Shown: positions 47,796-51,482, counted from the stretch's first letter. The stretch is DNA of 60,955 bases from a virus (IMGVR_UViG_3300042465_004842:1-60955), one strand, 5' to 3'. Numbers and translations are program-made. The notes: generated by a model not told the origin, from the sequence alone.

Positions 47796-48713
47796 ATGGC
47801 TATTTCTCGTTCACAACTAGTTAAAGAACTAGAGCCCGGCCTGAACGCTTTGTTCGGCATGGAATATCGTCGCTACGAAAACGAACACACCCAGATCTTC
47901 TCAGTTGAGACTTCTGATCGTGCGTTTGAAGAAGAAGTGATGTTGACGGGCTTTAATGAAGCCCCAACCAAAAATGAAGGTGCTGGCGTTCAGTACGATA
48001 CCGCTTTGGAATCGTTCACCGCTCGTTACACTCATGAAACTATCGCTTTGGCGTTTGCTCTGACCGAAGAAGCTATCGAAGATAACCTCTACGATAGTCT
48101 GTCTAAGCGTTACACACGCGCCCTTGCTCGTTCGATTCAGTACACCAAGCAAGTTAAAGCAGCTTCGGTATTGAACAATGCGTTTAATACTGGTGGTTCT
48201 TACAACGGTGGTGACGGCGTGTCTCTGTGCAACAGCGCACACCCAACCGCACTTGGTCCTAACTTCAGCAATACTCCTGCTGTAGCTGCCGACTTGAATG
48301 AAACCTCGCTTGAGCAAGGTATTATTGATGTCGCTGGTTACACTGACGAACGTGGCTTGAAGGTAGCTGTATCCGTTGTGAAAATGATTATTCCTTCACA
48401 ACTGCAGTTTACGGCAGAGCGTTTGATGAAATCTACTCTACGTACTGCAACTGCGGATAATGACATCAACGCAATCCGTTCGATGGGCATGGTTCCACAG
48501 GGTTATTCGGTTAATCACTTCCTGACAGATCCAGATGCTTGGTTCTTGATGACTGATGCACCTAACGGCTTGAAGATGTTCCAGCGTTCGCCACTCAAGA
48601 CTGCCTTTGAAGGTGATTTTGATACTGGCAACGTGCGCTACAAGGCACGTGAGCGTTACAGCTTCGGCTGGTCTGATCCTCGTGGAATTTACGGTTCAAC
48701 AGGCGCAGCGTAA
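47796..48713 (+). CDS. Major capsid protein
   Basis: MAISRSQLVKELEPGLNALFG...SDRAFEEEV...DFDTGNVRYKARERYSFGWSDPRG; strongly biased codons. Confidence 0.92.
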   Translation: MAISRSQLVKELEPGLNALFGMEYRRYENEHTQIFSVETSDRAFEEEVMLTGFNEAPTKNEGAGVQYDTALESFTARYTHETIALAFALTEEAIEDNLYDSLSKRYTRALARSIQYTKQVKAASVLNNAFNTGGSYNGGDGVSLCNSAHPTALGPNFSNTPAVAADLNETSLEQGIIDVAGYTDERGLKVAVSVVKMIIPSQLQFTAERLMKSTLRTATADNDINAIRSMGMVPQGYSVNHFLTDPDAWFLMTDAPNGLKMFQRSPLKTAFEGDFDTGNVRYKARERYSFGWSDPRGIYGSTGAA

Positions 48714-48719
48714 TGTAAG

Positions 48720-48745
48720 AAAAGGGAGCTTCGGCTCCCTTTTTT
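48720..48745 (+). terminator. Rho-independent terminator
   Basis: AAAAGGGAGC-TTCG-GCTCCCTTTTTT. Confidence 0.9.
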
Positions 48746-48797
48746 ATTTGGTCAAAATGTTTGCTTTTTGTTCTTTTTATGCTATAAACATATTATT

Positions 48798-48867
48798 CCG
48801 GGAACCCCGGTATGTCGAACAGTCCCGGCTGACTTCATGCAGATCGACATACTTACAAGCATGAGGA
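48798..48867 (+). ncRNA. Candidate doubly pseudoknotted cis-regulatory leader RNA
   Basis: Four interleaved complementary pairs between an extended -10 (TGcTATAAA 48780-88) and the RBS. Confidence 0.6.
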
Positions 48868-48874
48868 AAATGAC

Positions 48875-49297
48875 ATGGCACGTTCTACCTTTTCGGGCCC
48901 AGTAGTCTCGAACAACGGCTTTATCGCTGGGCATCAAATTACCACAACAGACAACGCAATTCCCGCTACAGCTGTAGCTACAGCGGCGCAAGTTGCTACT
49001 GGCTACATCACTACTACTTCAGCAGCAACTACCACTATTACCCTGCCAACAGGTACTCTTTTAGGTGGCCTTATTGGTGCAACTCGTGGTACTTCATTTG
49101 ATTTATATGTTGATAACACGGCTGGTGCTAGTGTCGTAACTATTGCGGTAGCTACAAATGGCATTTTGTCCAGCGCAGCGGCTGATACGCCCGGTAGCTT
49201 TGGTGATTTGACCATTGCAGCGGGTGCTACGGGTCTTGCTCGTTTCACCATTATGTTCTCTAGTCCAACGGCATACGTATTTACTCGTACAGCCTAA
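48875..49297 (+). CDS. Virion structural protein
   Basis: MARSTFSGPVVS.NGF; Thr/Ala-rich. Confidence 0.7.
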   Translation: MARSTFSGPVVSNNGFIAGHQITTTDNAIPATAVATAAQVATGYITTTSAATTTITLPTGTLLGGLIGATRGTSFDLYVDNTAGASVVTIAVATNGILSSAAADTPGSFGDLTIAAGATGLARFTIMFSSPTAYVFTRTA

Positions 49298-49309
49298 TAG
49301 GAGGCTGTT

Positions 49310-49588
49310 ATGGGATTTGCAAGTGATGTCAAGAGCACTAGATTAGCGGCTAGTGGCGCTATTTTTGCTGGTCGCTCCCGTGTAAGAGGTATTTACATAG
49401 TTCCCGGCGTAGCGGCAGGCTCCGTTGTTGTCAACAATGGCAACGGCGGAACTGCGGTATGCACTATTGATACGGCTGCGTCAGGCACGACTACTTATAT
49501 TCATCTTCCCGAAGACGGTATTTTATGTGAGAACGGCTCTTACGCTGTGCTTACAGGCGTTACTGCAGCCACCTTCTTCTATGCGTAA
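49310..49588 (+). CDS. Small virion structural protein
   Basis: SDVKS...RVRGI...PEDGIL...TFFYA. Confidence 0.7.
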   Translation: MGFASDVKSTRLAASGAIFAGRSRVRGIYIVPGVAAGSVVVNNGNGGTAVCTIDTAASGTTTYIHLPEDGILCENGSYAVLTGVTAATFFYA

Positions 49589-49598
49589 GGATACGAAA

Positions 49599-49793
49599 AT
49601 GAAAAATATGCATAAAATGCCTAATGGCAAAATGATGAAGGATTCGGACATGGAGTATGGTGGCGAATCAGAAAAGATGGAAAAAATGGAATATAAGATG
49701 GGCGGCGGCTATATGAAAAAAATGGCTAAAGGCGGCTCAGTAACTCCTCGTGGTTGCGGGCAAGCTAAGAACAAGCCCTGCAAGATATGCTGA
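49599..49793 (+). CDS. Small Met/Lys-rich protein with AxGG tags
   Basis: MHKMPNGKMMKDSDM...YKMGG...MAKGGSV..RGCG.A....CKIC; AAGGA RBS. Confidence 0.65.
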   Translation: MKNMHKMPNGKMMKDSDMEYGGESEKMEKMEYKMGGGYMKKMAKGGSVTPRGCGQAKNKPCKIC

Positions 49794-49794
49794 C

Positions 49795-50037
49795 ATGGAG
49801 TTAATGCTTTGGAACATTCTACTTTCTGTTCTCATGACCATTTTTGGGTGGGTATTAAAAGAGAAATCTGATGAGTTGAATCGTATTCAAATTCTCTTGA
49901 ATAGAACAAGAGAAGAAGTAGCAAAAGAATACGTGACAAAAACTGAGGTCCATGCCGATATTAATCGTGTGCTGGATAGATTAGATCGTCTGGATGAAAA
50001 ATTAGATAGGTTAATGGGAGTTAGACATGCCAGCTAA
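49795..50037 (+). CDS. Membrane-anchored coiled-coil protein
   Basis: N-terminal TM, 'ILLNRTREEVAKEYVTK', LDRLDEKLDRL. Confidence 0.7.
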   Translation: MELMLWNILLSVLMTIFGWVLKEKSDELNRIQILLNRTREEVAKEYVTKTEVHADINRVLDRLDRLDEKLDRLMGVRHAS

Positions 50038-50344
50038 AAGTGCCAAGCAAAAAAAGCTAATGGATGCGGCTGCGCATAGTCCAGCTTTTGCTAAGAAAGT
50101 GGGTATTCCTTCTAAGGTAGCTAAGAAATTTAGCCGCACAAGTAAGGGCATGGAGTTTAAAAATGGCGGTATTTCTCGTGTAGGTAGAGCCGTTACTCCT
50201 AGTCGCCGTGACCCAGATATTGGAAAGATGATCAAAGAAGTAAAAGTTGAGAAAGATTCAACGATTATGGAATACGCTAGTGGTGGCGAGGTTGTCGTAA
50301 GGGGCACAGGCGCTGCACGTACTCAAAAAGCACGTATTTGTTAA
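50027..50344 (+). CDS. Small basic protein with AxGG tags
   Basis: MPAKSAKQKKLM.AAAH.P.FAKKVGIP; FKNGG, YASGG, RGTGAA. Confidence 0.75.
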   Translation: MPAKSAKQKKLMDAAAHSPAFAKKVGIPSKVAKKFSRTSKGMEFKNGGISRVGRAVTPSRRDPDIGKMIKEVKVEKDSTIMEYASGGEVVVRGTGAARTQKARIC

Positions 50345-50354
50345 AGGAAAAATC

Positions 50355-50801
50355 ATGGCCTTTCTAAAAAAAGTAGCAAGAGCGGTTGCGTCAGGTAGCC
50401 CAGTAGCGGCTGGAAAATCGTCTGGAATGTTTGGCGGAGCACTTAAAAAAGCTATGCCAAAAATTAAAGAAGCAATAGCTAGTGGTGCAGCAGCACCAGC
50501 GGCAGCAGCGAAAGGCCGTGGTCGTTCGGGTTTAGGTGGGATGCTGTCTGGCTCCTACACTGCAACGGCTAAAGCAGGAGCAGCTAATCCTAGAGGCGCA
50601 GGGAGTGGCTTGATGGGTGGTGCAATTAAACAAGCTATGGCGAAACGTGGCATGGGCCTTAAAAACGGCGGCATGGCAGAAGATAAAGCTGGTCGCGCCT
50701 TAGGTAAAAAGACAGCAGACTCAATGGGCCGTGCTATGGCTAAAGCCCCGATGAAGAAAAATATGGGTGGTATGGCTAAAAAATCGTCTAAGAAATGCTA
50801 A
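50355..50801 (+). CDS. Lys/Ala/Gly-rich basic protein with AxGG tags
   Basis: Low complexity; LKNGG, KNMGG. Confidence 0.65.
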   Translation: MAFLKKVARAVASGSPVAAGKSSGMFGGALKKAMPKIKEAIASGAAAPAAAAKGRGRSGLGGMLSGSYTATAKAGAANPRGAGSGLMGGAIKQAMAKRGMGLKNGGMAEDKAGRALGKKTADSMGRAMAKAPMKKNMGGMAKKSSKKC

Positions 50802-50807
50802 TAAGAC

Positions 50808-51482
50808 ATGACCACATCCGGTACAGCAACATTCAATCTTGATATTGATGATCTCATTGCCGAGGCGTTTGAACGCTGCGGCCTTGAGACGCGTACCGGG
50901 TATGATCTTCTGACAGCAAGACGTTCGTTAAATCTTTTGTTTGCTGATTGGGCAAACAGGGGTTTAAATCTGTGGACCATTGAGCAACGTCAGACAACAA
51001 TGGTGCTAGGGCAATTTGAATACACATTGCCAGCAGATACAGTAAATGTATTGTCTGCTGTTATACGTACCAATTCAGGAACCACTAATCAACAGGATAT
51101 AAGTATTGACCGTATTAGTCGTGCGGAATACTTGAATTTACCTGACAAATATACGCAGTCGCGTCCTGCGCAGTATTACGTCGAACGTACAATATCCCCT
51201 AAGCTGTATGTGTATCCTGCGCCTGATTCGTCGCAGCCGTATATCTTCCGCTACTATGCGATTCGTCGTATTGAGGATGTAGGGGCGTATACGAACACAA
51301 CAGATATTGTTTTTAGATTTTATCCATGCATGGCAGCGGGATTAGCTTATTACATCGCACTTAAAAAAGCTCCTGATCGCGTGGTTATGTTAAAGCAGTT
51401 TTATGAAGAAGAATTTCAACGTGCTGCACAGGAAGATAGAGATATTGCGAGTGTGTATTTGGTTCCAGACATGGGTAACTAG
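50808..51482 (+). CDS. Head-tail adaptor-like protein
   Basis: TTSGTATFNLD..EAFERCG..TARRSLNL..WANRGLNLW. Confidence 0.75.
   Translation: MTTSGTATFNLDIDDLIAEAFERCGLETRTGYDLLTARRSLNLLFADWANRGLNLWTIEQRQTTMVLGQFEYTLPADTVNVLSAVIRTNSGTTNQQDISIDRISRAEYLNLPDKYTQSRPAQYYVERTISPKLYVYPAPDSSQPYIFRYYAIRRIEDVGAYTNTTDIVFRFYPCMAAGLAYYIALKKAPDRVVMLKQFYEEEFQRAAQEDRDIASVYLVPDMGN

Follow-up and report, generated by a model that had tools for sequence, protein, structure and literature searches.

Introduction

What is encoded between the major capsid gene and the next structural gene of the phage genome stretch IMGVR_UViG_3300042465_004842 (60,955 nucleotides, about 61 kb; this whole stretch of DNA is called the window below)? 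After the capsid gene follow, in this order, a terminator hairpin, a promoter-like site, the element considered here, a GAGGA Shine-Dalgarno sequence and the ATG (48875) of a 140-codon gene. An initial annotation of the locus had described the element as a leader RNA with interleaved helices and had proposed a translational control element, a riboswitch-like element or a virion-associated RNA. The doubly pseudoknotted RNA leader is real and strongly conserved. Furthermore, it is a larger form of the orphan motif Mu-gpT-DE (Rfam family RF03012), the short form of which is already catalogued but uncharacterised.

Fold of the leader in the window

All four helices of the initial annotation are found in their places on the + strand with exact arms, those of A, B and D being given as 100 % complementary by a repeat search, and their order A-B-C-A'-C'-D-B'-D' proved correct. 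The centre is helix B, in which the 5' arm GTATGTCGA (48810-48818) forms 9 base pairs (bp) with the 3' arm TCGACATAC (48844-48852). The last of these pairs joins A48818 to T48844, and A48818 stands for the G of the first of three GAC triplets, here AAC (48818-48820). Helix B encloses hairpin C (48820-48831), composed of the stem CAG (48820-48822)/CTG (48829-48831) and a loop of 6 nucleotides (nt), TCCCGG (48823-48828). This loop is at the same time the 3' arm of helix A; it pairs with the 5' arm CCGGGA (48798-48803) and so forms the 5' pseudoknot. Loop E (48833-48842), which in the window reads TTCATGCA and is closed by the pair C48833-G48842, holds the 5' arm of helix D, TCATGC (48835-48840), and the pairing of this arm with GCATGA (48859-48864) forms the 3' pseudoknot. 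As had been annotated, helix D overlaps the Shine-Dalgarno sequence GAGGA (48863-48867), the first 2 nt of which lie inside the helix. Three single adenines stay unpaired at the junction, namely A48819, A48832 in the middle of the second GAC (48831-48833) and A48843 in the middle of the third triplet, here GAT (48842-48844). They correspond to the alignment columns A23 and A36, both nearly invariant, and to the invariant column A47. The 5' arm of helix A has in addition an alternative partner, CCCGG (48806-48810), with which it can form a local hairpin.

Such an arrangement is not expected by chance. Three interleaved stems of at least 6 bp were not obtained in any of 5000 dinucleotide-preserving shuffles of 48797-48874, and just 23 of them contained any 9-bp stem. 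The minimum free energy of the nested-only fold of 48746-48890 is unremarkable (z = -1.5), a value which is uninformative either way because nested folding cannot see pseudoknots. No terminator was found within the leader, and the covariance model R2, which describes the junction of the long form, finds a single copy of the element in the window. Two other explanations for the conserved sequence were rejected. As a repeated promoter or operator word, GTATGTCGA has 7 matches with at most one mismatch in the window, compared with 9.6 expected. An open reading frame (ORF) of 45 codons at 48768-48905 begins with TTG, and the variation there tracks the RNA pairing pattern.

Covariation among related leaders

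Related leaders were collected from phage contigs in two ways. A capsid-protein scan of viral contigs matched at least 600 stretches, from which 80 loci were kept, and three further scans used codon patterns for N-termini resembling MANTTFSGPV..., the beginning of the proteins encoded by the downstream gene family. The total is at least 359 unique leaders, and all 359 were collected at, and hence lie upstream of, one structural-gene family. A parser assigned 157 of them to a short form, 154 to a long form with a helix D of at least 5 bp, 15 to a long form without the 3' arm of D and 33 to other types; inspected by eye, the latter are mostly further variants of the same junction, and only L010 and L061 look unrelated. 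For an unfitted MAFFT alignment, 113 of 117 non-short leaders passed the parser (L010, L061, L136 and L189 were left out).

In this unfitted alignment the three GAC triplets are nearly invariant and pair in a cyclic manner, with C1-G2 at the foot of hairpin C, C2-G3 as the closing pair of loop E and G1-C3 at the top of helix B. This makes a perfect three-way junction, to which each strand contributes one unpaired A. The 13 pairs of helices B and C and the junction are 94.3 % paired (60.4 % when shuffled, with 0 of 500 shuffles reaching the observed value), with a covariation score of 0.853 compared with 0.207 for shuffled alignments, and both sides have changed in 12 of the 13. If the partners are slid against each other, pairing amounts to 22-39 %. 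Helix B, with its nine pairs, is 94.7 % paired and shows both-side changes in all nine. The first pair of helix C is CG in 112 of 113 leaders; the middle one is UA in 48, GC in 33, AU in 28 and CG in 4, and the third is GC in 78, AU in 6 and another combination in 29. At the junction, G1-C3 is GC in 104 leaders, AU in 8 and GU in one, and C2-G3 is CG in 111 and UA in 2; neither is unpaired in any leader. The window belongs to the AU cases of G1-C3 (AAC 48818-48820/GAT 48842-48844).

For helices A and D a covariance-model-fitted alignment of 91 rows was used, including two rows that are probably spurious (L051:5400-5477 and L085:455-557). Model R1, for which helices A and D of 10 CCTAG-type seeds were taken, served only to align relatives; it proved too narrow to detect the window at E ≤ 1. 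On the fitted alignment, helix A is 98.2 % paired with both-side changes in 5 of 5 pairs, helix D 96.8 % with changes in 6 of 6, and both together 97.5 % (slid partners 9-40 %). Since fitting favours structure, A and D were also subjected to a separate unfitted permutation test, in which the regions were set by the junction and helix B only; this was possible for 145 leaders and comprised 300 permutations. The 5' flank forms at least 5 Watson-Crick bp with the C loop of its own leader in 143 of 145 cases (swapped partners: mean 27.6, maximum 46), and loop E does so with its own 3' flank in 132 of 145 (mean 25.8, maximum 39). Altogether, 41 different A arm pairs, 48 different D arm pairs and 112 different 5' arms of B were counted. 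Covariation in homologues, named in the initial annotation as a test of the element, is therefore abundant in B, C, the junction, A and D.

G-U pairs are frequent, for instance 18 UG and 6 GU at one position of helix B. Because they are common on the + strand, the RNA is that of the + strand, and a palindrome acting at the DNA level is unlikely.

The alternative partner of helix A had been taken as a hint of a switch. A partner of the CCCGG type is present in 25 of 25 leaders with CGGG-type A arms (5.04 bp observed, 3.11 bp shuffled), so that it is kept in the lineages with CCSGG-like arms, but it occurs in none of 22 leaders with ACTATAC-type arms. A switch of this kind is therefore not family-wide; the alternative A hairpin may be a lineage-specific folding competitor or switch.

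Contact with the translation start

A Shine-Dalgarno-like string is present in 111 of the 113 long leaders. The 3' arm of D overlaps this string by 1-12 nt in 65 of them and abuts it in 30, which makes 95 of 111, and lies 1-6 nt upstream of it in the remaining 16. Most often the arm ends 11 nt before the ATG.

The short forms (n = 157) reach the translation start in another manner. The AGG of the Shine-Dalgarno sequence forms part of their outer helix. Loop E shows complementarity to the U-G of the start codon and the bases that follow, and it covaries with codon 2. A GCC core in the loop is accompanied by GCN (46) or GGC (14) as codon 2, and an A/U-CCC (WCCC) loop by GGU or GGA (94) and once by GGC; kinship inflates such associations, but this one is an association of complementarity. 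The best Watson-Crick helix has a mean of 4.71 bp, compared with 3.87 ± 0.07 bp in permuted combinations (maximum 4.08 in 1000).

Between the two stand the 15 intermediate forms, which combine helices A, B and C of the window type with an RF03012-type loop ..GCCAAGAC and are without the 3' arm of D. Their loops read ..GCCAA or ..CCCAA, followed by GAC. All ten ATGGC starts go with GCCA loops, and the five ATGGG starts with CCCA or ACCA loops.

Two further variants were noticed by eye. A permuted one lies about 90 nt before the ATG in L323, L329, L340, L343, L373, L389, L391 and similar loci and has the order 5' ACCCA or CUCAU strand, GAC, a short hairpin of the GNRA or UUCG type, GAC, a loop of about 15 nt with AGGAG, GAC and AUGGG. 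Here the AUG is part of the closing helix (B) and the Shine-Dalgarno sequence is found in loop E. L207, L216 and L248 retain helix B, loop E and helix D, but in place of hairpin C they have a short run of unpaired nucleotides (UUAAAAA or the like).

The short, intermediate, long and permuted forms make up a modular family, and in all of them the ribosome-binding site is an integral part of the fold.

The downstream gene

The position of the leader in the related loci indicates to which gene it belongs. A gene with a MANTTFSGPV-like start follows the capsid gene in 63 of the 79 loci that hold the capsid stop codon, and in 19 of these 63 other genes (341-1242 nt) are inserted between the two. 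Promoter and leader stand directly before the MANTTFSGPV-type gene in 18 of the 19 insert-bearing loci; the exception, L010, has no recognisable element. As the leader in these 18 loci adjoins the downstream gene and not the capsid gene, the element belongs to the downstream gene.

In the window this is the first gene after the capsid gene (48875-49297, + strand), which encodes a protein of 140 amino acids (aa) beginning MARSTFSGPVVSNNGF... The protein has no Pfam or PHROG match. It has 4088 relatives of 77-245 aa, and all 120 source names listed for them are 'hypothetical protein'. The depositors annotated the positional counterpart as 'cement protein' in the lake phage DSL-LC04 and as 'minor capsid protein' in the Planktothrix phage Pag-Yong1. 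In a low-confidence AlphaFold model (mean predicted local distance difference test score 61) the conserved first 24 residues are disordered; the best-conserved part of the protein is a predicted-disordered N-terminal arm (MANTTFSGPVRSENGF). The best match in the PDB found by Foldseek is a phage capsid spike, a weak one (E 7.6e-3, template modelling score 0.36), and matches to the N-terminal domains of tailspikes are weak as well. The protein is probably a capsid cement, minor capsid or spike protein.

Proposed function and alternatives

Judged from sequence comparison, the reading towards which we lean, with some reserve, is that of a cis-acting structured translation-initiation region: the mRNA of a small cement- or spike-like virion protein, whose gene is the first after the capsid gene, would have 48796-48877 as its 5' untranslated leader. 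This leader folds into a compact GAC three-way junction around three lone unpaired adenines. Hairpin C pairs through its loop with what would be the very 5' end of the transcript (helix A), and loop E pairs with a segment that lies immediately before the Shine-Dalgarno sequence and overlaps it (helix D). The ribosome-binding region, built into or against a rigid double pseudoknot, would in this way set the ease of 30S initiation on the gene. The helices, their covariation and their constant place at the translation start of one gene family are established; an effect on translation and its direction, repressing or enhancing, are presumed here, and so is a protein or another factor at the junction. 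A structured 5' leader with two pseudoknots, the last helix of which touches the Shine-Dalgarno sequence, fits the translational control element of the initial annotation.

Several observations weigh against this reading. Just 0-4 nt of the Shine-Dalgarno sequence are paired in the long forms, and none in 16 of 111, so that its occlusion may be weak in the forms of the window's kind; the placement of the Shine-Dalgarno sequence in the loop of the permuted variant could signify that this sequence is presented and not sequestered. Conservation extends to few unpaired nucleotides, namely the three A and one or two more, and they define no obvious binding pocket. Moreover, because neither of the two covariance models, RF03012 and R2, finds the other form, the apparent homology of long and short forms rests on the shared gene context, the GAC triad and the 15 intermediates. 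Finally, contigs of four RNA sequencing runs barely cover the leader and yield no 5' ends or strand.

The alternative that survives best, although we consider it unlikely, is a protective knot at the 5' end of the mRNA. In it the 5' terminus would be buried in helix A, or in the outer helix of the short form, and the transcript would resist decay by RNase E, RppH and RNase J, the position on the ribosome-binding site being secondary; the element would then resemble 5'-terminal stabiliser hairpins or viral exonuclease-resistant RNAs (xrRNAs). In 84 of 113 long leaders 4-10 nt do separate the -10 box from the first helix, which puts the beginning of this helix a few nt at most from where transcription is expected to start, and a three-way junction with pseudoknots to both flanks is reminiscent of the flavivirus xrRNAs. 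For 5' protection, however, a simple hairpin would suffice, no Rfam xrRNA family matches the element, and neither the tracking of codon 2 and the start codon by loop E nor the location of the 3' helix within 6 nt of the Shine-Dalgarno sequence would be explained.

Rather improbable in our opinion is a more specific proposal, in which the GAC junction would be a pseudo-threefold protein operator and the unassembled cement or spike protein would bind its own leader through the MANTTFSGPVRSENGF arm and shut off its own translation. No gene other than the downstream cement- or spike-like one accompanies the junction in every case. If this were true, synthesis of a decoration protein would be metered by capsid assembly, as in the autogenous control of the P22 scaffolding protein or of T4 gp32, by means of an RNA fold without a characterised relative.

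A small-molecule riboswitch has a very low probability. The A residues of the junction and the flanking G-C pairs would have to form a ligand pocket, and binding would stabilise the pseudoknots and hide the ribosome-binding site. A pseudoknotted aptamer over the Shine-Dalgarno sequence is indeed a known design (SAM-II, preQ1-II), and the junction is nearly invariant. Against this, the controlled gene is a virion structural gene that offers no metabolic logic and has no theme of metabolism or transport, no Rfam riboswitch matches, and very few unpaired nucleotides are conserved. The junction also tolerates G-C to A-U swaps (8 and 2 cases), as is the case for structural pairing. The low number of conserved unpaired bases, taken with this tolerance, suggests a self-contained structural junction rather than a metabolite pocket. 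Of the riboswitch-like character proposed in the initial annotation, nothing specific to a small-molecule riboswitch was found.

Even less credit is given to processive antitermination of the put type, in which a promoter-proximal RNA would modify RNA polymerase and the long structural operon would be read through terminators. The element does follow directly on the promoter and heads a run of same-strand structural genes, and the put RNAs of HK022 are also promoter-proximal and structured; the constant contact with the Shine-Dalgarno sequence or AUG and the covariation with codon 2 would nevertheless be left unexplained. A stand-alone small RNA or a virion- or packaging-associated RNA can practically be set aside: Rfam types RF03012 as 'Gene; sRNA' (small RNA), and a three-way junction with pairing loops recalls the packaging RNA (pRNA) of phi29, but no terminator separates the element from the coding sequence, the Rfam consensus itself spans GGAG and AUG, both loops pair in cis with their own flanks, no Rfam pRNA matches, and nothing points to the virion-associated RNA of the initial annotation.

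The element is present in cultured phages, namely HTVC023P and HTVC027P of SAR11, CRP-902 of Roseobacter, and DSL-LC04, and its function is therefore directly testable. With a very abundant group of aquatic phages as its carriers, the leader is among the commonest structured viral RNAs in surface waters.

Genomic context and distribution

The major capsid gene (47796-48713, + strand) was identified by matches to PHROG 371, major head protein (E 1.3e-22), and to Pfam Phage_capsid_4 (E 1.7e-12). Its DNA is 65-70 % identical to the counterparts in the Pelagibacter phages HTVC023P and HTVC027P and in DSL-LC04. The capsid transcript ends in a strong intrinsic terminator (48720-48749, + strand), which consists of a G+C-rich 10-bp stem (an inverted repeat with 10 of 10 bp; hairpin 48720-48743) with a TTCG loop and a T run. 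All weak Rfam matches to sRNAs near the element fall on this hairpin.

The promoter-like site (48761-48788, + strand), as read from the sequence, comprises TTGCTT, a gap of 13 nt and the extended -10 element TGcTATAAA (48780-48788), with a predicted start at about 48795. The extended -10 sequence of the initial annotation is thus in place, but a consensus promoter scan did not list it because its last base is A; stronger -10 boxes (TGTATAAT, TGTATATT) occupy the same place in relatives. Across the 113 long leaders, the -10-like hexamer ends 4-10 nt before helix A in the 84 mentioned above, and none was found in 10. From this position and the better -10 boxes of the relatives we infer that transcription would begin at about 48795, from a promoter adjoining the leader.

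Same-strand structural genes run downstream of promoter and element. At 49425-50801 lie three consecutive small basic ORFs rich in Gly, Lys and Met, each ending in Cys (..KPCKIC, ..KARIC, ..SKKC). One of them has an N-terminus of 38 residues in common with PHROGs annotated as virion structural protein, and the three may encode internal virion or ejection proteins. A match to Pfam SU10_adaptor at 50808-51482 (E 9.5e-12, above the cut-off) places a head-tail adaptor about 2 kb downstream of the leader.

Contig L001 is a close neighbour of the window. Its capsid protein is 99.7 % identical and its promoter is identical, and the leaders diverge from helix A on, the changes in the B and D arms being compensated. 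In the downstream protein of L001 residues 75-140 are 92 % identical to those of the window, and its first half is unrelated. The leader appears to lie at the boundary of a recombination module (48790-49100 in the window, 3500-3900 in L001).

At least half of the sampled words of 47900-49500 were found in 14 DNA runs from 6 studies of lake, river, drinking-water and marine-plankton metagenomes, one of which may be the source of the window. To judge from these runs, the lineage of this phage seems to belong mainly to fresh water, whereas the pelagiphages with the same RNA are marine. Six RNA runs contain small shares of the sampled window words. Relatives of the capsid gene are covered by contigs of four of them, and one piece of 40 nt (run X17) falls on 48795-48834; starts, ends and strand do not emerge from these contigs.

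Relation to Mu-gpT-DE and other known systems

The short form is the one that Rfam describes. RF03012 matches all 8 short-form loci tested with 47.4-68.4 bits, five of them reaching the gathering score of 49 and three falling just short of it. In the Roseobacter phage CRP-902, which carries a head gene with the note 'Mu-like prophage major head subunit gpT', a match of 72.3 bits stands directly before gp56 and ends at the start of that gene. The same junction is seen in the Rfam consensus (CCCUGACAG, hairpin, CUGACAcUAGCCAcGACAGGAGAUuaACAUG), which runs through GGAG and AUG; the Rfam structure has two nested helices only and leaves loop E unpaired. None of the 12 long-form loci tested was found by RF03012 at E ≤ 1.

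For the long form, model R2 gives 65.6 bits in HTVC023P, a phage of the seed alignment. Two matches outside the seed, of 58.6 bits in HTVC027P, before gp62 and after two inserted genes, and of 46.4 bits in DSL-LC04, before the annotated 'cement protein', sit exactly before homologous genes. R2 does not find the short forms (E 0.12 for L177 and 0.45 for L094). Neither RF03012 nor the long-form model matches Pag-Yong1. In this phage (L444, 2484-2592) a G+C-rich leader with CTGAC, GGAC and GGAGACGGACATG precedes the 'minor capsid protein' gene, and it may be a diverged form.

The element of the window and Mu-gpT-DE agree in three respects. Both lie between a capsid gene of the Mu-gpT/HK97 type and the next gene (in the window, between the capsid end at 48713 and the ATG at 48875), both precede the same gene family, and both have a core of outer helix, GAC, hairpin, GAC, loop (about 9 nt in RF03012), GAC and 3' strand of the outer helix. 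In the window this order is seen as AAC (48818-48820), GAC (48831-48833) and GAT (48842-48844), with a compensatory A-U pair at G1-C3. An outer 3' strand consisting of the CAGG of the Shine-Dalgarno sequence and the loop AcUAGCCAc, both characteristic of RF03012, are absent from the window. The window form is about 30 nt longer than Mu-gpT-DE. In contrast to the plain-stem hairpin C of the latter, its hairpin C is reduced to a stem of 3 bp, and the loop has its partner in an additional 5' arm, A. In the long form the outer helix measures 7-12 bp and does not include the Shine-Dalgarno sequence, the 3' strand of helix B in the window (48844-48852) lying apart from 48863-48867, and loop E pairs with a dedicated 3' arm of D and not with the start codon.

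The name Mu-gpT-DE reportedly goes back to Weinberg et al. in 2017 (NAR 45:10811). The motif is absent from the excerpts of the main text of that publication (PMC5737381); it is described in the supplements, which may already note the pseudoknot or longer forms. The part of the CaCoFold paper (PMC7657543) that concerns Mu-gpT-DE or RF03012 says only that the Rfam and ZWD versions differ, and no other literature match for either name was obtained in the text portions covered by the search. No literature joining pelagiphages and pseudoknots was found, and of the papers listed for pelagiphages and riboswitches none concerns the element, judging by titles and abstract openings.

At gathering scores Rfam has no match in the whole window, and over 48300-49300 at E ≤ 10 none at the element, also none to RF03012. 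The novelty expected from the initial annotation is therefore reduced and not removed: the window itself is without a match, but its short-form relatives are RF03012, an uncharacterised motif. On present evidence, what is added to the catalogued short form is the long form, the cyclic arrangement of the GAC triplets, the base pairing between loop E and the start codon, and the new assignment of the motif to a cement-like gene as its leader. The motif model thereby gains two pseudoknots and a cyclic junction, and what was an orphan 'downstream element' becomes the 5' leader belonging to a specific structural gene.

With the HDV-like (hepatitis delta virus), pistol, twister and hammerhead ribozymes the element has in common its small size, interleaved helices and occurrence in phage genomes. 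None of these, nor hatchet, is among 16 weak Rfam matches at E ≤ 10, and none appears at gathering scores. The order A-B-A'-D-B'-D' is not that of HDV; the initial annotation had set the topology apart from HDV and hammerhead ribozymes. A hammerhead was rejected also from its core, as CUGACGA occurs in one lineage only, the window having CUGACUU and other lineages CAGACG. The fold resembles a pistol without P3 but lacks the conserved nucleotides of pistol. A pRNA of the phi29 type finds no match in Rfam, and the element is continuous with the coding sequence.

The flavivirus xrRNAs are similar in their three-way junction, in the pairings to the 5' end and to a downstream strand and in a compact, knot-like fold at the start of the RNA. 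The element differs from them by its bacterial host and its location on the ribosome-binding site, and xrRNAs gave no Rfam match.

In the leaders of T4 gene 32 and Escherichia coli rpsO and in SAM-II and preQ1-II, a leader pseudoknot has its 3' strand on or next to the ribosome-binding site. The element shares with these systems a 5' leader pseudoknot with the 3' strand at the ribosome-binding site; it matches none of them in Rfam and is distinguished from them by a core formed of a three-way junction and by two pseudoknots which flank it.

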